IMG/VR virus record: IMGVR_UViG_3300023371_000083
DNA from: a virus
Taxonomy: Duplodnaviria; Heunggongvirae; Uroviricota; Caudoviricetes
Strand: one strand, 5' to 3'
Length of the DNA stretch: 24,792 bases
Shown here piece after piece: positions 3,133 through 23,314 of this stretch. A program made the translations under genes and the position numbers. Each line of letters begins with the position of its first letter. The first letter of the stretch is position 1. Under the pieces are notes generated by a model. The model was not told the DNA's origin. It searched no databases and saw nothing but the letters and a program-made list of their open reading frames with translations.

Positions 3133-5520
3133 ATGGTAAAAAAATACTGGATTTGTACTGAAGTCCCCACAACAGAAGAGCTGGTATTCACAAAAGATAA
3201 AGCATATCTGGCTGTGAATTTTGCTGATGGCATGATTAAAGTAGTGGATGATGAAGGTGTAGTATTCAATGATTACAAAGATTGCGTAATGACGGAATTA
3301 ACAAATATGGGTTATAAATTTGCAGAAGTTGTAATTCCTGATCATATTGGATATTTTAGGGCGACTGCTGCATCTGAAAAATTCCAGTTAAATAAAGTAT
3401 ATGAAATTAATACAGAAAAAATTGATGTAAATGCAGATCATCCTCTGATGAATGTTGTTACAGATGTAACTCTGTTAAATGAAAATTTTGATTTTTCTAC
3501 AAAAACAGAATTCCTGGAATATATCTCTGCACATTTTAATTCTGATATCACAAAAATTACACCAGCGGATATTGCTGTAATGTGTAATGTTGCAATGAAT
3601 GTCAGATTTGTAAATGGTGATTTTGCTGCATTTCACAACGACACATTGGTAACAGATGACATGGATATCCCTGAATTTACACCTGTTTTTGCAACAAATG
3701 AGGAAATTGCAAATATTAAAAGAGAAATGATTGAATGTTATACAAAATTTAGTCATCCTTGGAAAAATACAGGTGTAGATAAAGAACTTACAAAATGGAA
3801 TATTAATAAGGCGACGCTTCGTGCTATGTTCAAATCCTCTCCTCATTATAATGGAAATCAGCAGTTGGTTTTTAGTGATGAGCATTATAGATTAAATACA
3901 AATAAAAATGCTGGTGCAGATTTTATCAATTGGGTAAATTCTGTATTTGATTCTAATGCATTGCTGGAACCTAAAAGAGTACTTGGTTATACATATGATG
4001 AACTGGCTACAGTAAAAGCATATTACCAGGCTACAATGCCCAAAGTTAAACCCATGATTCAGGGTAATAATTTGTATCTGATGAATTATGAACTGATGAA
4101 AAAGAAACGTGAAGAAATCGACAAAATTGATTACATCATGGAAACATTCCTTGATGAACGCAACACACCAGAATCTATTAAAAAACAGAAAGATTATAAA
4201 CAGCTGATCCGTATTATTATGGATATGAAAGACGAATATATTGATGATGATATTGCAACAAAAGTCAATCATTATCTGCCTGATGTGAGAGCCAGAAAAG
4301 GTCAGAAAGCAACAAAAATCACAGGTAAAATTATGCGTCATTTCGGCATTGACAAATGCACAGATTATAATAAAAAGTTTGCAAAATATGCAGATGCAAT
4401 TAACATTATCAAAATTGTAAGACATACAGTTATTTCTATTCACCCTATGGATTATCTGACAATGAGTTTTGGTAATTCTTGGAGTTCCTGTCACACCATT
4501 GATAAGGACAATATCAGAAATGGTGGCGGAAATGGTTATCATGGTGCATATTGTTCCGGTACACTGTCTTATATGATGGATTCTGCATCTATTATTGTAT
4601 ATACCGTAGACAGAGAATATGAAGGCAATACATTCTATGAAAAAGATAAAATCAATCGTTGCATGTTCCATATTGGCAAAGAAAAAATTGTACAGGGAAG
4701 ATGTTATCCACAGGCAGAAGATTCTAACGATGAACTGTATAAACAGCTGAGAGCATTGGTTCATAGAACATTTGCAGAAATTTGGGGTATTCCTAATCTG
4801 TGGGTACTGAAAACATCTGGTCTGAGAGATTATATTACAAATAGCGGTACACATTATCCTGATTATTATCATTCCTCCAAATGTAATATCAGTACTTATA
4901 AATTTGCAAAAAATAAACAGGAAGTTGTACATATTGGTGTAAAACCTGTTTGTACATGTTGTGGCAGAGAACATGGTAGATCCGATCATCTGCATTGTTG
5001 TAGAGGTGAACATATTAAAGATGATACAACAGCAACAGATTATACAACAGATGATGTTGAAGCAGAGCCAGAGGCGCAGTATGTATATTGTGAATGCTGC
5101 GATGAAGTTGTAGAAAGGGCGGATGCACATTTAATTGATGGCGAATGGTACTGCGATGATTGTTGTTTCTACTGTAACTATCATGAATGCTATGAAGAAA
5201 GTGATGGCGAAATTTATGTAACTGGACTTGGTTATGTTTGTGATTCTGCTCTCGATAGTGGTTATGTAGATTATTGTGAATGTTGTGGTACATATTATCG
5301 TACAGATGTACTGGTATGGATTGATGGAGAAGATCGTTATGTATGTGACGACTGTTGTTCCAGATATTATACTAGAGATTATTATACAGATGAATATGTT
5401 CACAATGATGATATTAGAATGTGTTGCGTTTGTGACGCACATGTTTATTATGAAGATGGTGAAACAAATGAAAACGGAGAATTTATTTGTAATCACTGCC
5501 TTGAGGCTGAAGAAGATTAA
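3133..5520 (+). CDS. Large phage-type protein (795 aa): central domain with SIHPMDYLTMS...SWSSCH / SYMMD / RCMFH / QGRCYP motifs and C-terminal Cys-rich (CxxC) repeats
   Basis: Long ORF with AGGAGA RBS; the motifs and repeats are visible in the translation; function not established. Confidence 0.85.
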   Translation: MVKKYWICTEVPTTEELVFTKDKAYLAVNFADGMIKVVDDEGVVFNDYKDCVMTELTNMGYKFAEVVIPDHIGYFRATAASEKFQLNKVYEINTEKIDVNADHPLMNVVTDVTLLNENFDFSTKTEFLEYISAHFNSDITKITPADIAVMCNVAMNVRFVNGDFAAFHNDTLVTDDMDIPEFTPVFATNEEIANIKREMIECYTKFSHPWKNTGVDKELTKWNINKATLRAMFKSSPHYNGNQQLVFSDEHYRLNTNKNAGADFINWVNSVFDSNALLEPKRVLGYTYDELATVKAYYQATMPKVKPMIQGNNLYLMNYELMKKKREEIDKIDYIMETFLDERNTPESIKKQKDYKQLIRIIMDMKDEYIDDDIATKVNHYLPDVRARKGQKATKITGKIMRHFGIDKCTDYNKKFAKYADAINIIKIVRHTVISIHPMDYLTMSFGNSWSSCHTIDKDNIRNGGGNGYHGAYCSGTLSYMMDSASIIVYTVDREYEGNTFYEKDKINRCMFHIGKEKIVQGRCYPQAEDSNDELYKQLRALVHRTFAEIWGIPNLWVLKTSGLRDYITNSGTHYPDYYHSSKCNISTYKFAKNKQEVVHIGVKPVCTCCGREHGRSDHLHCCRGEHIKDDTTATDYTTDDVEAEPEAQYVYCECCDEVVERADAHLIDGEWYCDDCCFYCNYHECYEESDGEIYVTGLGYVCDSALDSGYVDYCECCGTYYRTDVLVWIDGEDRYVCDDCCSRYYTRDYYTDEYVHNDDIRMCCVCDAHVYYEDGETNENGEFICNHCLEAEED
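5080..5499 (+). repeat. Protein-level Cys-rich repeats (YCECC...YCDDCC; YCECC...YVCDDCC; MCCVC...ICNHC, plus degenerate units), probably Zn-binding
   Basis: Repeated aromatic-CxxC...CxxC units in the translation of 3133..5520. Confidence 0.75.
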
Positions 5521-5529: not shown

Positions 5530-5580
5530 TTTTAATTATATTTAAACTAAAAAATATTGTTATATTTGGAGGGATACATT

Positions 5581-6663
5581 ATGAAAAATACATCTATGGA
5601 TAGAAAAACAACAAGAAAAATTAATAAATTCAAAAGAATCTGCCAGCAGGAACAGATGGAGCTGAAAGATAATTTGGTAAATATTCTGAAATCTCAGGGT
5701 TATAAAAACCCTGTGGTTGCAGATGGTTTTGTTTATGCAAAAGGTGAAGTACCAGTTCTGCTTCTGGCACATATGGATACGGTACACAAATCTCTGCCAT
5801 TTATTATCTCTGTAAAAAATACAGGAAATGGTACGAAACTTTCTTCTCCTCTGGGGATTGGTGGTGATGACCGTTGTGGCATCTTTATGATTTTGGAAAT
5901 TATTAAAGATCTGAAATGTTCTGTTTTGTTTACAGAAGACGAAGAAACAGGTGGCATTGGTGCAAGAAAATTCACAGAAACATCTTATATTAACGATCTG
6001 AATGTAAACTACATGATTGAGTTTGATAGAAAAGGTAATAACGATGCTGTTTTCTATAGTTGTGATAATAAAAAATTCACAGAATTTGTAACAAAAGAAT
6101 TTTTTAAAACCAATTGGGGTAGTTTCTCTGATATTTCTGTAGTTGCTCCAGCAGCAGGTATTGCGGCTGTAAACCTGTCTTGTGGTTATTATAAAGCACA
6201 CACACTTGATGAATATGTCATTTTTGAAGAAATGATGAAAGTTGTTGAAGAAGCAAAGAAAATGATTCAGAGAGATGTAGAAGAACCTTTTAAATATGAA
6301 AAGAAAACATACAGCTATTATGGTTATGGGAGATATTTGGATTATGGCTTTGATGTATTTGATGACTATGATTTCGGCTACAGCGGAAGACTTGGTCGTG
6401 GAAGATATGATTATACAGTGAAAAGAAATGCTTCCGGCACAACAACAAAAGAAAATGAGCAGAAAATGAAAAGATGGTATGTAGAATTTTTCTCTTGTGA
6501 ACAGTATCAGTTTGATGTTGTTGAGGGATATACAATTGCAGATGCATGGTATGAATTTTGCATGATGTACCCCGATGTATGTTATGACGATCTCATTGAA
6601 ATTTATGATGCAGATGAAGTGGAAAGACCTATTGAATATGAAGTAAGACTGGAAAAGATGTGA
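5581..6663 (+). CDS. M28/M20-clan (aminopeptidase-like) zinc metallopeptidase, phage type, with a Tyr/Gly/Asp-rich linker and small C-terminal domain
   Basis: Metal-ligand motifs LAHMDTVH, GGDDRCG, FTEDEETG, IEFDRKG, NLSCGYYKAHT; GGAGGG RBS supports ATG at 5581. Confidence 0.88.
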   Translation: MKNTSMDRKTTRKINKFKRICQQEQMELKDNLVNILKSQGYKNPVVADGFVYAKGEVPVLLLAHMDTVHKSLPFIISVKNTGNGTKLSSPLGIGGDDRCGIFMILEIIKDLKCSVLFTEDEETGGIGARKFTETSYINDLNVNYMIEFDRKGNNDAVFYSCDNKKFTEFVTKEFFKTNWGSFSDISVVAPAAGIAAVNLSCGYYKAHTLDEYVIFEEMMKVVEEAKKMIQRDVEEPFKYEKKTYSYYGYGRYLDYGFDVFDDYDFGYSGRLGRGRYDYTVKRNASGTTTKENEQKMKRWYVEFFSCEQYQFDVVEGYTIADAWYEFCMMYPDVCYDDLIEIYDADEVERPIEYEVRLEKM

Positions 6664-8220: not shown

Positions 8221-9249
8221 ATGGATTTAAATGAAATCAAAGCAAAAATCTCTTCTGAGGAATATAAATTTCTCAGAGAAAATGAACATTTAGGTAAAAA
8301 TATTATTTTGCTTGGTTTAGGCGGAAGTCACGCTTATGGCACAAATACCCCTACATCTGATTTAGATGTAAGAGGGATCGCATTAAATAGCAAAAGAGAG
8401 ATTTTGACTAAAGCAAATTTTGAGCAGTTTGTTGAAACAGAAACAGATACAACTATTTATTCCTTTAACAAAATTCTTAATCTGTTATCTAATTGTAATC
8501 CAAACACAATCGAAATGCTTGGGCTAAAGCCGGAACATTATCTTTATATCTCTCCAATTGGTCAGCAATTATTGGATAATAAAAAAATCTTTTTATCTAA
8601 AAAAGCAGCATATGCTTTTGGTGGTTATGCGACATCACAGTTGAGAAGATTGGATAATAAAAGTGCAAGGCTAGTTGGACAGGCACAAAGAGAACAGCAT
8701 ATTTTAAATTCAATTTTAAATGCAAAAGAACAGTTTCCAGATAAATATTTTTATCATGAAAATGAATCTATCAATTTGTATTTAGATAAAGCAATTAATG
8801 AAGATTATGAAACAGAAATTTTCATGGATGTGCATTTTACCGGATATCCTCTGAGGGATTACAAGGCGATGTGGTCTGAAATGAATAATATCGTAAAAGA
8901 ATATGCAAAAATCGGGAAAAGAAATGCTAATGCAATTGAACATGATAAACTTGGCAAACATATGATGCATCTTGTTCGGTTGTATATGATGTGCCTGGAT
9001 ATTTTGGAAAGAGAAGAAATTGTTACATACAGAGCAAAAGAACATGAGGAGCTGATGGCAATTAGAAATGGGAAATATCTGGACGATAATAGACAGCCCA
9101 TTCCAGAATTTTATGAAATGGTTGATGAATATGAGAAAAAAATTGAAAAAGCAAAATTAGAAACATCGTTACCAGATAAACCTAATTATAAAGCAATTGA
9201 AGAATTTATGATGATGGTTAATGAAATGGTTGTAAAAGAAGAAATTTAA
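8221..9249 (+). CDS. RlaP-like nucleotidyltransferase (DNA polymerase beta superfamily)
   Basis: GGSHAYGTNTPTSDLDVRG (GS..YG....SDxD), NCNPNTIEML, and KHMMHLVRL in the helical C-terminal domain. Confidence 0.88.
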   Translation: MDLNEIKAKISSEEYKFLRENEHLGKNIILLGLGGSHAYGTNTPTSDLDVRGIALNSKREILTKANFEQFVETETDTTIYSFNKILNLLSNCNPNTIEMLGLKPEHYLYISPIGQQLLDNKKIFLSKKAAYAFGGYATSQLRRLDNKSARLVGQAQREQHILNSILNAKEQFPDKYFYHENESINLYLDKAINEDYETEIFMDVHFTGYPLRDYKAMWSEMNNIVKEYAKIGKRNANAIEHDKLGKHMMHLVRLYMMCLDILEREEIVTYRAKEHEELMAIRNGKYLDDNRQPIPEFYEMVDEYEKKIEKAKLETSLPDKPNYKAIEEFMMMVNEMVVKEEI

Positions 9250-10580: not shown

Positions 10581-11450
10581 ATGCCAGTACATGATGATCT
10601 TGGTACAAGAATGAAAGAATATTATGAGCAGATTCCAAAAACAAAATTAATGAGAAGAATGCCAGTTATTATCCGACTGGATGGCAAAGCATTTCATACA
10701 TTTACAAAAGGATTTCAGAAGCCTTTTGACGAAGTGTTGATGAAATCTATGCAGGGCACAATGAAATATCTTTGTGAAAATATCCAGGGTTGCGTTCTTG
10801 GTTATACCCAGTCCGATGAAATCACGCTGGTTTTGGTTGATTATAAAAAGCTAACCTCTGCAGCATGGTTTGATTATGAGGTACAGAAAATGTGTAGCAT
10901 TGCGGCAAGTATGGCAACTATGGCTTTCAATAGAATTTTTTTGGAAGAGTATGTTGAATTTTGTGGTCGATGTGCAAAATATGATTATCACCATGAGGGA
11001 GATAAAGAGATGTGTCAGAAACTCATGGATACATATAAAAATGCAGTTGACAAAGGCGCTATGTTCGATGCTAGATGCTTTAATATTCCAAAAGAAGAAG
11101 TGACAAACTGTATTTTTTGGAGACAGCTGGATGCAACTAGAAACTCTATTCAGATGGTTGGACAGGCTTATTTCAGTCACAAAGAATTACATCAGAAAAC
11201 TTGCAGTATGATTCAGGATATGCTGATGGAACAAAAGGGTGTAAATTGGAACGACCTTCCACTTTGCCAGAAACGAGGGGTTTGTGCAGTCAAGAATAAA
11301 ATTATTACAGGAAATGATGGAATGCTTGAAATGTATGTATGTCGTGATGACAGCCAGCCTGAAAATGCATGGATTATTGATAAAGAAATTCCTATTTTCA
11401 AAGGCGATGGCAGAAAATATATTGATGAATTAATTTTTATTGGAGAGTGA
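10581..11450 (+). CDS. thg1: Thg1-like protein (tRNA-His guanylyltransferase family, 3'-5' polymerase)
   Basis: RMKEYYE, IIRLDGKAFHTFT, GYTQSDEITL, SIAASMAT..FN, MFDARCF, WRQLDATRNSI; both catalytic Asp motifs present. Confidence 0.93.
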   Translation: MPVHDDLGTRMKEYYEQIPKTKLMRRMPVIIRLDGKAFHTFTKGFQKPFDEVLMKSMQGTMKYLCENIQGCVLGYTQSDEITLVLVDYKKLTSAAWFDYEVQKMCSIAASMATMAFNRIFLEEYVEFCGRCAKYDYHHEGDKEMCQKLMDTYKNAVDKGAMFDARCFNIPKEEVTNCIFWRQLDATRNSIQMVGQAYFSHKELHQKTCSMIQDMLMEQKGVNWNDLPLCQKRGVCAVKNKIITGNDGMLEMYVCRDDSQPENAWIIDKEIPIFKGDGRKYIDELIFIGE

Positions 11451-15607: not shown

Positions 15608-16063
15608 ATGAGTAGAGTTGATAATATTATAAAGTTCGCACAGAGAAGAGAAGAAGAAAAAAGCACACAGGAGAATGCAAAACAGAAACGTATTGAAGCA
15701 TATAAAGAACAAATTAGAGCATTAAAACCTAGAATCGATGAGCTTCTTGAAGTTGGTAATGCTTGTAAAAAACACGGGATTGCTTTAAATGGCAGTTCGT
15801 GGGGTGGTCACGAAGGATATGATACACACCAGTTTATCTCTAATGCTTGGTCGCATTTAGTAGGCTTTATTTCTGAAGGTAAAGACACGCCTTTTACCAA
15901 AGTTGGAAAAATTGGTGGTGGGGCTTGTAATTATAATTTAACCACTGATGGCGAGATCATTATCGTAACTGGTGATGTCGAATCTGTTTTAAAATGTTTT
16001 GTAGAAGGCTTTGATACTTTTGAAGAAGAGTTTTATGCATATGTTGATAGAACTGTAAAATGA
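15608..16063 (+). CDS. Hypothetical protein (151 aa), N-terminal coiled-coil-like region
   Basis: GGAGG RBS, ATG at 15608. Confidence 0.8.
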   Translation: MSRVDNIIKFAQRREEEKSTQENAKQKRIEAYKEQIRALKPRIDELLEVGNACKKHGIALNGSSWGGHEGYDTHQFISNAWSHLVGFISEGKDTPFTKVGKIGGGACNYNLTTDGEIIIVTGDVESVLKCFVEGFDTFEEEFYAYVDRTVK

Positions 16064-18514: not shown

Positions 18515-19510
18515 ATGGCTGAACAGTTAAAAATTCTTGAATTATTTGGTGGAATTGGTGCTCCCAGAAAAGCCCTTGAAAATATGGGGTATGACATTAA
18601 ATCCATTGACTATGTTGAAATCCTGCCATTTGCAGTAATGGCTTATAATGCAATTTTTGATAATGGATATAAACCACAGGATATTTGTTGCTGGAATATG
18701 GATGTGGATGTACTGATTCATGGTAGCCCATGCCAGGATTGGAGTAAAAATGGTTTAAATAATGTAAACACAGGTAGATCTATTCTGTATGAAAAAACAT
18801 TGGATATTATCGGAAAAGAGCTTGTGAGAAAACCAAAAGTTGTCATTTGGGAAAATGTTCCCAACTTGTTATCTGAGGGTAAAAAAGTTAATCATAGAGT
18901 TCATCATCAACATTATCTTGATGTGATGGAGGGTTATGGTTATAAAAATTATTATTCTATCTTGAACGCAAGTGATTATGGAATTGCACAAGCAAGAGAA
19001 CGTCTTTATACAATTAGTATTTTAGATGATGTGGAATTTGAATTTCCTGAAGCGATCCCTCTAACAAAAGATATTAGATATTATCTCGAAAAACAAGTGA
19101 ATTGGGATGCATATGCATTATCTGATGCTGAACAGGCAATTTTCTTTAAAAACGATAATGGTGAAATGTGTGTAAGAGAAGCAACAAAAACTGGATATAA
19201 AGTGGTGGAAGAATATGATGTAATTAATGTAGAGTTTCCTAATTCTAAAACTCGTAGAGGAAGAGTTGGTAAAAAAGTTGCGAAAACTTTAACAACAAAT
19301 CCTAGACAAGCAATTTATTATGATGGGAAACTTAGAATGCTGACAGCGAGAGAACATCTCCGTTTAATGGGATTTAAAGATAGAGATTATAACCACATGT
19401 ATAGAAATGGTATCACCGAAAAACAAATTAGCTTCCTTGCAGGCAACAGCATTTGCATCCCTGTATTGGAGGCTATTTTTGGTAAGTTACAGGAAATCGG
19501 GGTGATTTAA
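18515..19510 (+). CDS. DNA (cytosine-5)-methyltransferase, apparently orphan
   Basis: Motif [18 protein letters not shown] (catalytic Cys), VI WENV, VIII QARERL, IX RMLTARE..RLMGF, X AGNSI. Confidence 0.95.
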
Positions 19511-19511
19511 C

Positions 19512-20021
19512 ATGATTAAAAATAAAATGGAAATTCTTCAGGCTTTTTATGAACGATACGCAACTCCATATGTGGTTGGTAAGTGCGTTGGTTTTCATAC
19601 AATGGATAACAAAATTAGATTCACTTTTTATGATCGTGGATATTTTAATTTGTATGCATGGATTGAAGATGGAGAATTACATATCTCAAACGAAAGAATG
19701 GAATCTGTTTTTGATTATGCCGAAGAGAACGGGTTAACAGAATGGGATATCCTTTGTATTAAGTATGGGAAAGAAAAAGCAGCACAAATGACTAGAACAA
19801 ATCTGGCATTGAAAAATCTAAAAACGGCTTTAGAACATATGAAGTCTGCATGGTATAAATGTGAAACTGCATTCCATAATTTTGATATCAATGTAAATGA
19901 TTACATTTGTGGAAGCGAAGAAACTAATGATGAATATCCATTTGATAAATCATTTGACGATCTTAGGATTGTAGATTGGGTAGACGGAGCAATTAAGAGA
20001 ATTGATAAAGATTTAAAATGA
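19512..20021 (+). CDS. Hypothetical protein (169 aa)
   Basis: GGGGGTG RBS; coupled to the MTase. Confidence 0.78.
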   Translation: MIKNKMEILQAFYERYATPYVVGKCVGFHTMDNKIRFTFYDRGYFNLYAWIEDGELHISNERMESVFDYAEENGLTEWDILCIKYGKEKAAQMTRTNLALKNLKTALEHMKSAWYKCETAFHNFDINVNDYICGSEETNDEYPFDKSFDDLRIVDWVDGAIKRIDKDLK

Positions 20022-20031
20022 GGTGAAATTT

Positions 20032-20226
20032 ATGTTTAAAGTTGGAGATTATGTAAGATTAAATGAAGAATTCTGTAGGGAAGAAGAGAGAAAACTGATT
20101 TATATGATTACAGATGTAAACAATGCAACGAAAAGATGTTATATCGCAGCATTGAATACAAATTTATCTATCTTACCACAAGAATTAGTGTCTTTTGAAA
20201 TGATTAGAAAGGTTGATGAAAAATGA
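20032..20226 (+). CDS. KOW/SH3-like small protein, array member 1
   Basis: MFKVGDYVR... pattern; GAGGTG RBS supports ATG at 20032. Confidence 0.75.
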   Translation: MFKVGDYVRLNEEFCREEERKLIYMITDVNNATKRCYIAALNTNLSILPQELVSFEMIRKVDEK

Positions 20227-20660
20227 TTGGATTAAATACGAGATGTATTTTTAATACCAGCGATGTATATCATCAGCATCATAACGGTAGGGTATGTGTT
20301 GTAACTGATAGGATTTTATTTTCAGAAACAGAAGATGTACATTATGAAATTAGATTTGATGATTCAGATAGCATTTATATGGAAATGTGTGTTGTTAAAG
20401 AATCTGATTTAATTCCAATTGGAGATTATTTTATGCAACATCCAGAAAAATTTTATACCTTCAAGGGTGGCAGTGGTGTTCCTGATAGATATGCCAACGA
20501 AAAATGTTTAATTATAAACAGGGAGGACAAATATAATTGTAAAATTGTATTTGTTAATAATTCAACATGGTATTGTCATTTTAATGATCTTATCGAACCA
20601 ATTAAAATTACTCATAAGTTATTAAACGATTTAACAAATATTGGGGTAATTTTTCAATAA
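20223..20660 (+). CDS. Two-domain KOW/SH3-like protein, array member 2
   Basis: Two units (HNGRVCVV...YEIRFDD...ESDL; PDRYANEKCLI...IVFVN..WYCHFNDL) plus tail HKLLNDLTNI; ATGA coupling. Confidence 0.8.
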   Translation: MIGLNTRCIFNTSDVYHQHHNGRVCVVTDRILFSETEDVHYEIRFDDSDSIYMEMCVVKESDLIPIGDYFMQHPEKFYTFKGGSGVPDRYANEKCLIINREDKYNCKIVFVNNSTWYCHFNDLIEPIKITHKLLNDLTNIGVIFQ

Positions 20661-20679
20661 TGAAATAAGAGGTGCAAAT

Positions 20680-20892
20680 ATGAAATATGCTTTTGAAAAA
20701 GGAAAAAAATATATATACCGTGCAAAGGATCTGGCTGCAGGGGCTCCTGGATGGAGATATGATAATGCAATTTGTGTAGTGAAGTCCTATGATGGTGGCA
20801 ATAAAGTTTTTGTTGAATTTGAAGATGAAAATACAATGTGGGTTGCGCCACATAGATTAGATTTTCTATACCAAACAATTGAACCAATTTAA
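20680..20892 (+). CDS. KOW/SH3-like protein, array member 3; truncated by TAA, with the family tail continuing in frame to 20955
   Basis: FEKGKKYIY...PGWRYDNAICVV...VFVEFED..MWV; after TAA at 20890-20892 the frame reads LKMHLNLYRLIDGIIDIHCK*. Confidence 0.75.
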   Translation: MKYAFEKGKKYIYRAKDLAAGAPGWRYDNAICVVKSYDGGNKVFVEFEDENTMWVAPHRLDFLYQTIEPI

Positions 20893-20972
20893 TTAAAAAT
20901 GCATCTGAATCTTTATAGACTCATTGATGGTATTATTGATATTCATTGTAAATGAAAATGGTGGTGAAAAAA

Positions 20973-21209
20973 ATGTTTGCGATTGGGCAAAAATGTGTTT
21001 TTACATAATATAAAGAGCTTGATGGGAAAGAATGTATAGTTAATAGTAAGCCAATTAAAGATTCAGATGATAGAATTTATTACAAAGTGCTTTTTGAAGG
21101 AAATGACGAAAGATGGGCATATGAAAACGAACTGCAGATTGTGAAATATCAAGTCGATGCATCCATGTTTCGATTAATTGATGGTATTAATCAAATTACA
21201 TATATTTAA
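20973..21209 (+). pseudogene. KOW/SH3-like array member 4, interrupted by an in-frame TAA at codon 12 (not in the ORF track)
   Basis: GGTGGTG RBS, ATG at 20973; reads MFAIGQKCVFT*YKELDGKECIV...YYKVLFEGNDERWAYENEL...MFRLIDGINQITYI* with TAA at 21006-21008. Confidence 0.8.
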
Positions 21210-21225
21210 AATAGGAGGTATGACT

Positions 21226-21492
21226 ATGAGAACAATTAATGCGGGTGGTTTGTATCGTGTAAAATATGTGCCACATATTTCAAGTGGTGCACCAGAAAGT
21301 TTTGATGGTAAGTTATGTACAGTCACAAAAATCGTTGGCTTAGGAGATAAAGCCAAATGCTATGTGAATTGTAGAGGACTTATGGGGTTTTATTTATTCC
21401 CAGATGAACTTGCAGAGATTCGAACAGATGAATTAGATGAGTTTAAAATTATTTGTATGCGATTAGAGGAAATGAAGGTGTGTGCAAGATGA
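21226..21492 (+). CDS. KOW/SH3-like protein, array member 5
   Basis: AGGAGG RBS supports ATG at 21226; INAGGLYRV...APESFDGKLCTV...YLFPDEL. Confidence 0.8.
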   Translation: MRTINAGGLYRVKYVPHISSGAPESFDGKLCTVTKIVGLGDKAKCYVNCRGLMGFYLFPDELAEIRTDELDEFKIICMRLEEMKVCAR

Positions 21493-21737
21493 GTATTGTT
21501 ATCGGTGGCAAATATATGATGAAAAAATTTACCGATGATATGCCAAGTGAATACATTAATATTGTAAACAAAGTTGGCATAGTGGAAGATGAACAGGCTA
21601 TCAATGATGGAAGGAGAATGTTTATTTTGAGATGCAATGATAGGATTTATTGTTTATACGAAGACGAGTTGGTTCCTGTAGATAATAAAGATATTTATAA
21701 ATTGCTTGATGGTATTAAAAACATTAAATTAATATGA
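21489..21737 (+). CDS. KOW/SH3-like protein, array member 6
   Basis: ATGA coupling; IVIGGKYMM...LYEDEL...IYKLLDGIKNIKLI. Confidence 0.8.
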   Translation: MSIVIGGKYMMKKFTDDMPSEYINIVNKVGIVEDEQAINDGRRMFILRCNDRIYCLYEDELVPVDNKDIYKLLDGIKNIKLI

Positions 21738-21746
21738 GGTGAAAAT

Positions 21747-21998
21747 ATGAATGGTATTGTAATTGGAAACAAATATAGATTTATTGAAAATGATAAATAT
21801 GGCACATGTATGCCATTGAAATATCACGGTAAAATCTGTAAAGTTGTTGTGGCAGATGGAGAATGGCATGGTGTAGCATCGTATATTGTTCATTTTGAAG
21901 ATAATGATGTGCCATATTGGGTTCATTATGATGAATTGTATATCGTCGAAACTCCGTATAGATTAATTAACAGTATCAAACAAATTAAAATGTTATAA
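21747..21998 (+). CDS. KOW/SH3-like protein, array member 7
   Basis: GAGGTG RBS; IVIGNKYRF...PLKYHGKICKV...YIVHFED...WVHYDEL...YRLINSIKQIKML. Confidence 0.82.
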   Translation: MNGIVIGNKYRFIENDKYGTCMPLKYHGKICKVVVADGEWHGVASYIVHFEDNDVPYWVHYDELYIVETPYRLINSIKQIKML

Positions 21999-22009
21999 GG
22001 AGAATTGTT

Positions 22010-22291
22010 ATGATAAAAAAAGAAGTTTTTGATAACAAATTTGTATTTTTACGTGGCGAACATCATTGTGGTATTCCTGAAAGATATCGTGGGCAATTAT
22101 GCACTGTTGTTCAAATTGATGGTTATTCGCATGACAATGATATTATAGGAGAAAAGGCAACTGTTAGTATTCAATTTGTGAATGATGATAATATTAAATG
22201 GAGAACATTCTTTTGTGAATTAAAATTGTATAATACAATGAACGCTGATAAAATTCTGAATAGCATAAAAGATAAAATTCATTATTTATAA
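22010..22291 (+). CDS. KOW/SH3-like protein, array member 8
   Basis: AAGGAG RBS; IPERYRGQLCTV...IQFVND..KWRTFFCEL...KILNSIKDKIHYL. Confidence 0.8.
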   Translation: MIKKEVFDNKFVFLRGEHHCGIPERYRGQLCTVVQIDGYSHDNDIIGEKATVSIQFVNDDNIKWRTFFCELKLYNTMNADKILNSIKDKIHYL

Positions 22292-22312: not shown

Positions 22313-23314
22313 GTGATAATTATAAAAGATTTGTGGAATGAATTCATAAATTCTATCGGGTTTGCTTTAACAGCTTTACTTGTTGTAATTGGTTTGCCAG
22401 TCGTTTTGTGTTCGCTAATTGAATTTATAACAAATCCATATATTGTATTTTGGGTGTTGTTATTATTATTAATACTTTATATTTTATACAAGTTAGGATA
22501 TTGCGAATCATCTTGCAATCAAGGAATAATGGATGGCGAATATAAAGATAAAATTGTTGATGAATTACAGTTACATATTTATATGATACCTATTCTTGGA
22601 GGGTTGTATCCTCAATATAACAGAGGGACTTTAAAGGGCGAATATACAGCTGATATTGTTATGATGCAATTTTTATTAGCTTTAAAGAAGCGGTGTGAGA
22701 ATAACCCAAAACTAAAAGATTATTTCTTTAACAAAGATATGATTTATGTTGCTTTTAGAGAAAAATTTTGGCATAAACATAATGATAGTTTTATCCCAGC
22801 CAATCTATATAAATATACTTTATTTTTCTTTAAAAGGAATTTAAAGTGTAGCACAGAAGATGCTGAGAGATATTACAAAAAAGAATTGAATGAGATTTAT
22901 TATAATATTGTAAAAGAATGTCTGGAAACGACCTATTATGGTGTTGGCAAGGTTACACTGAAAGAAGATCTCTCCGGATATACTGTATCGTTTCCATTAA
23001 ATCTTGTGCCACCATTAGAATGGAAATTTTACAAATTTAAATGCACAGAAGATGAAAAAGAAAAAGCAATTCAAAAAGAATGGGAATATATTTTCACTGC
23101 ATCTGATAGATTGCAGCAATTTAAAGAGGAGGCTGATAAATATGTGAAAATGCATTTATCTAATGATGCAGAACGTCATCTTTGCAAGGAAACTAATACA
23201 TCGCTAACTTGCAGGGGAAAATGGAGATTTCCAAGAACTAAAGATTATGATTATAGAAAGGGGATTGGTAATGACGATCAAAACATACAAGTTAATTTAC
23301 AGAAATGGAATTAA
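22313..23314 (+). CDS. Hypothetical membrane-anchored protein (about 333 aa; two N-terminal TM helices); start uncertain
   Basis: Long ORF; hydrophobic IGFALTALLVVIGLPVVLCSLI and YIVFWVLLLLLILYILY; the GTG start sits inside the RBS-like AAGGTG. Confidence 0.78.
   Translation: MIIIKDLWNEFINSIGFALTALLVVIGLPVVLCSLIEFITNPYIVFWVLLLLLILYILYKLGYCESSCNQGIMDGEYKDKIVDELQLHIYMIPILGGLYPQYNRGTLKGEYTADIVMMQFLLALKKRCENNPKLKDYFFNKDMIYVAFREKFWHKHNDSFIPANLYKYTLFFFKRNLKCSTEDAERYYKKELNEIYYNIVKECLETTYYGVGKVTLKEDLSGYTVSFPLNLVPPLEWKFYKFKCTEDEKEKAIQKEWEYIFTASDRLQQFKEEADKYVKMHLSNDAERHLCKETNTSLTCRGKWRFPRTKDYDYRKGIGNDDQNIQVNLQKWN

Follow-up and report, generated by a model that had tools for sequence, protein, structure and literature searches.

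The window analyzed here is 24,792 nucleotides (nt) of DNA from a virus of the Caudoviricetes. It is the minus strand of positions 15984–40775 in the 82-kb IMG/VR record IMGVR_UViG_3300023371_000083, a record with an estimated completeness of 64%. Between positions 20032 and 22291 the window carries a row of eight small genes, which we refer to as g1 to g8. An original prediction, made from the sequence alone, had described this row as eight genes with nine domains of a KOW/SH3-like type, and all of the motifs quoted in it were found in place. Profile comparison in which each member was left out in turn revealed adjacent, same-strand, demonstrable homologues in seven of these genes, comprising eight domains. 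The array is thus a genuine multigene family, which is confined to a single clade of phages. The genes are as follows, with lengths in amino acids (aa) and scores from the leave-one-out comparison:

20032–20226, plus strand: g1, 64 aa; KOW/SH3-like predicted fold, no C-terminal tail motif
20223–20660, plus strand: g2, 145 aa, two domains; g2N (20223–20426) is borderline, g2C (20427–20660) is a clear member with tail
20680–20892, plus strand: g3, barrel of 70 aa; cut short by TAA at 20890–20892, with an in-frame tail remnant up to 20955
20973–21209, plus strand: g4, broken; in-frame TAA at 21006–21008 after 11 codons
21226–21492, plus strand: g5, 88 aa; 16.7 bits; variant tail RLEEMKVCAR
21489–21737, plus strand: g6, 82 aa; 26.8 bits
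21747–21998, plus strand: g7, 83 aa; 50.4 bits; the most central member and the one modelled
22010–22291, plus strand: g8, 93 aa; 26.8 bits; longest beta2–beta3 loop in the family

Two junctions, g1/g2 and g5/g6, are ATGA overlaps. The remaining genes are separated by gaps of 9–19 nt with GGAGG-like Shine-Dalgarno sites. The description of the whole row as translationally coupled thus holds strictly for the two overlaps and not for the other junctions.

All-against-all BLASTP detected weak links among g2C, g3, g4, g5, g6, g7 and g8. In the leave-one-out test, each member was compared with a profile hidden Markov model (HMM) of the others, and 1000 shuffled sequences served as control. The same seven domains scored 17–50 bits each, with g2C at 29.1 bits, and the highest score of any shuffle was 12.5 bits. 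The N-terminal half of g2 is borderline at 10.7 bits, a score reached by 0 of 1000 shuffles, and it carries the family pattern GRVCVV...YEIRFDD...EM. For g1, the score against the family profile was 1.5 bits, which was equalled in 269 of 1000 shuffles, the hhalign probability was 0.1%, and a homologue search returned nothing beyond its own cluster. In the ESM Atlas, the model of precisely this g1 sequence resembles NusG/Spt5 KOW clusters, with TM scores of 0.71–0.73. Because the leave-one-out and hhalign tests fail while the Atlas model is KOW-like, g1 is probably a further mini-protein of the SH3-like type whose membership of the family cannot be demonstrated. The evidence thus supports seven genes with eight domains (g2N, g2C and g3–g8), so that the proposed homologous array stands without its first gene. 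Scans of all members against Pfam and PHROGs gave nothing significant, and no copies of the family beyond the array were found in the 82-kb record.

We modelled g7 with AlphaFold2 (AF2) using a 13-row alignment. The model, with a predicted local distance difference test score (pLDDT) of 83, contains strands at residues 9–12, 30–40, 43–50, 57–60 and 64–66, followed by a helix at 72–78. It is a five-stranded, strongly bent antiparallel barrel of the SH3-like type, and for this modelled member the expected KOW-type small barrel was borne out by both AF2 and structure comparison. An exhaustive VIA search with the model matched 216 PDB chains at Z of at least 5. Within the top 50, all matches that are named or have recognised family names are SH3-like domains, with a root-mean-square deviation (rmsd) of 1.6–3.9 over 51–78 residues. 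The Z scores were 9.0 for DSIF KOW6-7, 8.9 for L21e, 8.7 for PetP, 7.1–7.8 for NusG KOW and 7.6 for YorP (2HEQ). Because such values are common among small barrels, these matches establish the fold class and nothing more. Foldseek gave weak matches to g7 at E 0.04 or worse (chromo-barrel, Tudor, PetP, L21e), and the Atlas leads for the family were all SH3-like families, including DUF4314, YorP, Imm31 and MotB. For g2, AF2 produced a model usable for g2C only (pLDDT 74–85), as g2N remained below 45 though it is strand-rich. The members vary in isoelectric point between 4.6 and 9.3 and are not consistently basic, and 9–17% of their residues are aromatic. A family protein is predicted from the models to have about 80 residues and to consist of an SH3-like (KOW/Tudor/PetP-type) five-stranded barrel and an amphipathic C-terminal helix common to the members.

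The best conserved stretch across the paralogs is formed by the last 13 residues, with the consensus [YF]-[KR]-L-I-[DEN]-[GS]-I-x-x-I-K-h-h. A variant of this tail, RLxEMKVCxR, is found in g5 and its orthologue. Read as a helix, the tail is amphipathic, with L3, I4, I7 and I10 on one face and flanking lysines. Since the tail codons differ synonymously among 17 members, the constraint on the tail acts at the protein level.

We compared the family with known small barrels. The original prediction had likened the proteins to YorP of Bacillus phage SPbeta (PF09629; PDB 2HEQ). Like the array proteins, YorP is an SH3-like barrel of about 70–85 aa from the early/accessory region of an SPbeta-type phage, and its gene is no more than about 1.4 kb away from mtbP, which encodes the C5 methyltransferase of that phage. 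Unlike them, it lacks a LIDGIxxIK tail, and the annotation shows it as a single gene. The comparison of 2HEQ with the g7 structure (Z 7.6, rmsd 3.3, 74 residues, rank 13) is not above that of unrelated SH3-like domains. No match of PF09629 to the 18 members was found at E up to 10, the family HMM did not find yorP among the SPbeta open reading frames (ORFs), and the hhalign probability between the family and YorP was 1.2%. The likeness to YorP therefore stands at the level of the fold, without a sequence link, and is no better than that to dozens of SH3-like domains. As a separate observation, SPbeta yorN (49 aa), yorP (71 aa) and yorQ (51 aa) form a strand-rich row that looks SH3-like by eye (L014:11714–12492), about 1.2 kb upstream of mtbP. 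By position, this row could be a counterpart of the array. No sequence link between yorN, yorP or yorQ and either g1 or the array family was found.

The only solved protein reached by sequence is the PetP/Tsr0524-like subunit of the cyanobacterial cytochrome b6f complex (PF11061; 7R0W chains V/X, 2N5U). The 18-row family profile matched PetP (7r0w_X) with E 7.8e-4 and 22.7 bits over positions 1–65. Only 1 of 18 single members touched PF11061, with a best E of 0.068, which does not reach the Pfam threshold. PetP is likewise a small SH3-like protein, it matches the g7 fold (Z 8.7, rmsd 1.9, 23% identity) and it acts purely by docking onto a larger complex. It differs in that it comes from an unrelated organism and setting, and has neither the C-terminal tail motif nor an array. 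The KOW domains of NusG/Spt5 and L21e/L24 share the five-stranded barrel, and the N-terminal hydrophobic-G-x-K-aromatic strand of the array proteins resembles the KOW motif. The KOW profile PF00467 did not match any member at E up to 10, so that the likeness is at the fold level only. In contrast to KOW domains, the array proteins stand alone, with no NGN domain or ribosomal context and no basic surface. A literature search on YorP and on arrays of SH3-like phage paralogs returned nothing relevant, and the HIDEN-SEQ preprint contains no mention of SH3, barrels or paralogs.

To find relatives, we ran a profile search of 1.84 billion representatives, which gave 16 matches. About 12 of them are true, all small proteins of the same phage clade. 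A word-indexed protein search with the 18-row profile returned clade members only. Searches in IMG/VR, JGI metagenomes and GTDB genomes (with g7, the protein encoded downstream of the array, its alignment and the g4 alignment as queries) detected none beyond three lineages. These are the lineage of the window, a diverged relative represented by a 3.2-kb contig (L011), and a third, GC-richer lineage (L012). The downstream protein is shared by all three:

22313–23314, plus strand: 333-aa membrane protein adjoining the last array gene; two predicted N-terminal transmembrane helices (by eye)

It has no Pfam or PHROG match. It comes after the last array gene in each of the three lineages (L011, 2718–3176; L012, 301–660), and the identity of the window protein is 67% to L011 and 29% to L012. 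The order of genes in L011 is the end of the g2 orthologue, an extra member of 78 aa, the g3 and g4 orthologues, an extra member of 81 aa, the g5–g8 orthologues, an extra member of 75 aa and then the membrane protein orthologue. L012 carries a family member followed by the same membrane protein. A score matrix showed that g2–g8 have one-to-one orthologues in L011, in the same order and with 31–52% identity (g5/P0012 47%, g6/P0016 50%, g7/P0010 51%, g8/P0017 31%). The copy number therefore varies among the relatives, as expected from the original prediction: seven genes are present in the window and at least 10 in L011, three of them without an orthologue in the window.

The proposed repeated duplication was not borne out as a recent event. 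Because each of g2–g8 keeps its own orthologue in the same order in the diverged relative, the paralogs are old and individually conserved, with gene gain and loss separating the lineages. Estimates between the window and L011 with the NG86 method gave saturated rates of synonymous change (dS). The rates of nonsynonymous change (dN) were 0.38–0.67 for the array genes and 0.22 for the adjacent membrane protein. Amino acid change is thus 2–3 times that of the neighbour, which bears out the part of the proposal that concerned rapid divergence. The dN/dS ratios were below 1, in the range of 0.10–0.56. Judged by these sequence comparisons, the array is under purifying selection overall, with faster change than its neighbour.

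Between close strains, we counted 34 nonsynonymous and 25 synonymous changes in the array. The two halves of g2 differ in the comparison with strains L018 and L019 (g2N, 11 nonsynonymous and 1 synonymous; g2C, 5 and 8; Fisher p = 0.011). This contrast suggests that selection on g2N, one half of a single gene, is relaxed or diversifying, although its 11:1 ratio does not exceed the neutral expectation significantly. In a further contig (L016:364–528) the g5 orthologue appears shortened to 54 aa. Since a scaffold gap (a stretch of N) lies in this region, the short g5 probably stems from the assembly and does not represent a third broken member.

Two members of the array, g3 and g4, are broken in the window, and both changes involve the same 21 nucleotides. 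The features concerned are:

20887–20907, plus strand: 21-nt block ATTTAATTAAAAATGCATCTG, an insertion in g3; g4 lacks the identical block (alignments to L008, L009 and L010; blastn differences)
20908–20955, plus strand: remnant of the g3 C-terminal tail, NLYRLIDGIIDIHCK, in frame but past the TAA
21056–21069, plus strand: 14-nt sequence in g4, about 140 nt downstream of the new junction 20902–20915 and its exact reverse complement (inverted repeat I3)

In g4, the loss of the block, which codes for YLIKNAS-, leaves ACA TAA and with it the stop codon at 21006–21008. The block was received by g3 at a position 99 nt upstream of the g4 site and one frame off, giving ATT TAA. The conserved tail of g3 is cut off because of this in-frame TAA at 20890–20892. 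An internal ATG of g3 at 20899 has no Shine-Dalgarno sequence before it.

On sister-lineage contigs with 3–7% nucleotide divergence (L008, L009, L010 and L016), g3 (84 aa) and g4 (85 aa) are intact. The intact 84-aa g3 orthologue (P0009) is found on L009 and L010, and the intact 85-aa g4 orthologue (P0011) on L008, L009, L010 and L016. The outgroup L011 carries the coding equivalent of the block (YLVENASE) in g4 and none in g3, and the state in the window is therefore derived. At least 24 independent contigs of up to 129 kb in ENA and JGI assemblies (32 index blocks) encode exactly the shortened g3 of 70 aa. The rearranged haplotype is thus real and common. On the contigs listed with the 70-aa g3, no gene is called at g4.

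The new junction reads CATCTG followed directly by AATCTTTA, and its perfect reverse complement lies at 21056–21069. A spanning match of at least 14 nt was obtained at only 2 of 400 random positions. These observations hint at a templated rearrangement, for which 21056–21069 may have served as template or splint. Four other accounts of the 21-nt change were rejected. Misassembly does not agree with the same 70-aa product coming from different assemblers and sources. Phase variation of the block was dismissed as the contigs with the intact state share many other single-nucleotide differences and hence belong to a separate lineage. A reading of TAA as a sense codon, or its readthrough, is not compatible with TAA ending g2, g4, g7 and g8. 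For ribosomes to hop across the insert in g3, a matching in-frame landing codon would be needed, and none is present.

All genes of the window are carried on the plus strand, and its GC content is about 31%. No TAG is present in the array. Contigs with the same genes reach 129 kb. Near the array, the window encodes an AAA ATPase, an M28-like peptidase, an RlaP-type nucleotidyltransferase, a Thg1-like enzyme and a C5 DNA methyltransferase. Downstream of the array are the membrane protein, a RadC-like protein and a tyrosine integrase. Immediately upstream are:

18515–19510, plus strand: C5 DNA methyltransferase
19512–20021, plus strand: 169-aa ORF, context and not a family member, between the methyltransferase and g1

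The array had been placed directly after the methyltransferase. This is not the case, because the 169-aa ORF, which starts 2 nt past the methyltransferase stop codon, sits in between. The ORF gave no match in Pfam and PHROG scans, and the same layout is kept on the 107–129 kb contigs of the phage. A megablast of the whole window against phage and plasmid collections returned no match. Two further observations concern the more distant parts of the window. The RlaP-type nucleotidyltransferase (8221–9249; PF10127, E 4e-19) and the Thg1-like tRNA-His guanylyltransferase (10581–11450; PF04446, E 3e-30) are about 1.3 kb apart, and the pair could be a phage tRNA repair module. A 795-aa ORF (3133–5520) without a Pfam or PHROG match is located directly 5′ of the M28-like peptidase (5557–6663).

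The reading that we favour, with a probability of roughly 0.4, is that the array encodes binder modules with a host-directed role, which are individually dispensable and share a contact made by the tail. The setting would be the accessory/early region of an SPbeta-like temperate gut phage of about 129 kb. The proteins would act as non-enzymatic binding modules. Their variable loops (beta1–beta2, and the beta2–beta3 hairpin with indels of 0–14 residues) would set the target of each paralog. The constant tail would provide the common contact, either packed on its own barrel or docked to one shared partner. The likely role would be host takeover, counter-defence or immunity-type inhibition, and each member may be dispensable singly and useful in some hosts only. 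Such conditional usefulness would explain both the retention of the orthologues and the tolerated loss of the g3 tail and of g4.

This reading agrees with the lack of a match to any catalytic family, the absence of a common charge, the richness in aromatic residues, the varying loops and the constant tail. The dispensability of single members is supported by the haplotype with a shortened g3 and a dead g4 on at least 24 contigs. Several points weigh on the other side. The SH3-like fold suits many roles, including the binding of RNA, DNA or the ribosome, and neither a homologue nor the PADLOC and anti-defence libraries were informative on function. One-to-one retention of orthologues is equally consistent with a fixed, phage-internal role. 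The C-terminal tail helix in the g7 model has low confidence (pLDDT 56). Finally, the family is so narrow that the comparative inference is limited to three lineages, two of which are known only from contigs of 0.7 and 3.2 kb.

A KOW/Tudor-like function in gene expression was considered as an alternative. The proteins would then bind RNA, DNA, the ribosome or RNA polymerase and tune phage expression, for which the KOW domains of NusG/Spt5, ribosomal L21e/L24 and T4 MotB are models. The top fold matches of g7 (DSIF KOW6-7, L21e with 22% identity, NusG KOW) are of this kind, and MotB clusters appear among the Atlas feature leads at 0.85–0.87. However, neither KOW nor MotB of Pfam matches a member even at E 10, and at pH 7 most members carry a net charge from −5 to +3, without a conserved basic face. 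A set of 7–10 paralogs, two of which are lost in a common haplotype, is also a poor fit to a core expression factor. We consider this explanation unlikely.

Doubtful as well, in our view, is a single assembly. Here the tail would dock the paralogs to each other or to the downstream membrane protein, resulting in a membrane-associated multi-adaptor complex (compare Sm rings). The tail is the best conserved segment across the paralogs and, as read from the sequence, a short, lysine-flanked amphipathic helix at the extreme C-terminus, which fits a docking element. The membrane protein comes next after the array genes in each of the three lineages, though conserved gene order is expected anyway among related phages. 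Against an assembly, the copy number varies (7 versus at least 10), and the widespread haplotype without the g3 tail and g4 would be intolerable for a fixed stoichiometric complex.

We regard a bolder reading as speculative and quite improbable. Here the tail helix would serve as an address tag that docks changeable SH3-like adaptors onto one partner, for example the membrane protein or a host hub, and the phage would carry a modular 'one anchor, many heads' targeting system. Separately, the double silencing by the 21-nt block would be a templated (splinted or template-switch) rearrangement of a kind not usually catalogued. Very unlikely is evolutionary debris, that is, duplicated small ORFs drifting with little or no function: the two broken genes of seven in a widespread haplotype, the 11:1 ratio of g2N between close strains and the very narrow distribution would fit it, but in a relative so distant that dS is saturated every member still has an open frame, a Shine-Dalgarno site and the family motifs, the dN/dS ratios are 0.1–0.56, g2C shows 5 nonsynonymous and 8 synonymous changes, and the tail is conserved through synonymous changes.

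In sequence the family is new, its fold is very common and its genes form a phage paralog array; its present value lies in hypothesis generation. The relocation of the 21-nt block offers a natural example of a complex, probably templated mutation. Small unannotated early/accessory genes take up much coding space in large phages, and such families are candidates for host takeover or counter-defence. The array offers a compact test set, made up of 7–10 paralogs with variable loops and one constant tail, together with a haplotype that is a natural double knock-out. It could reveal the use that phages of gut Firmicutes-type hosts make of SH3-like mini-proteins.

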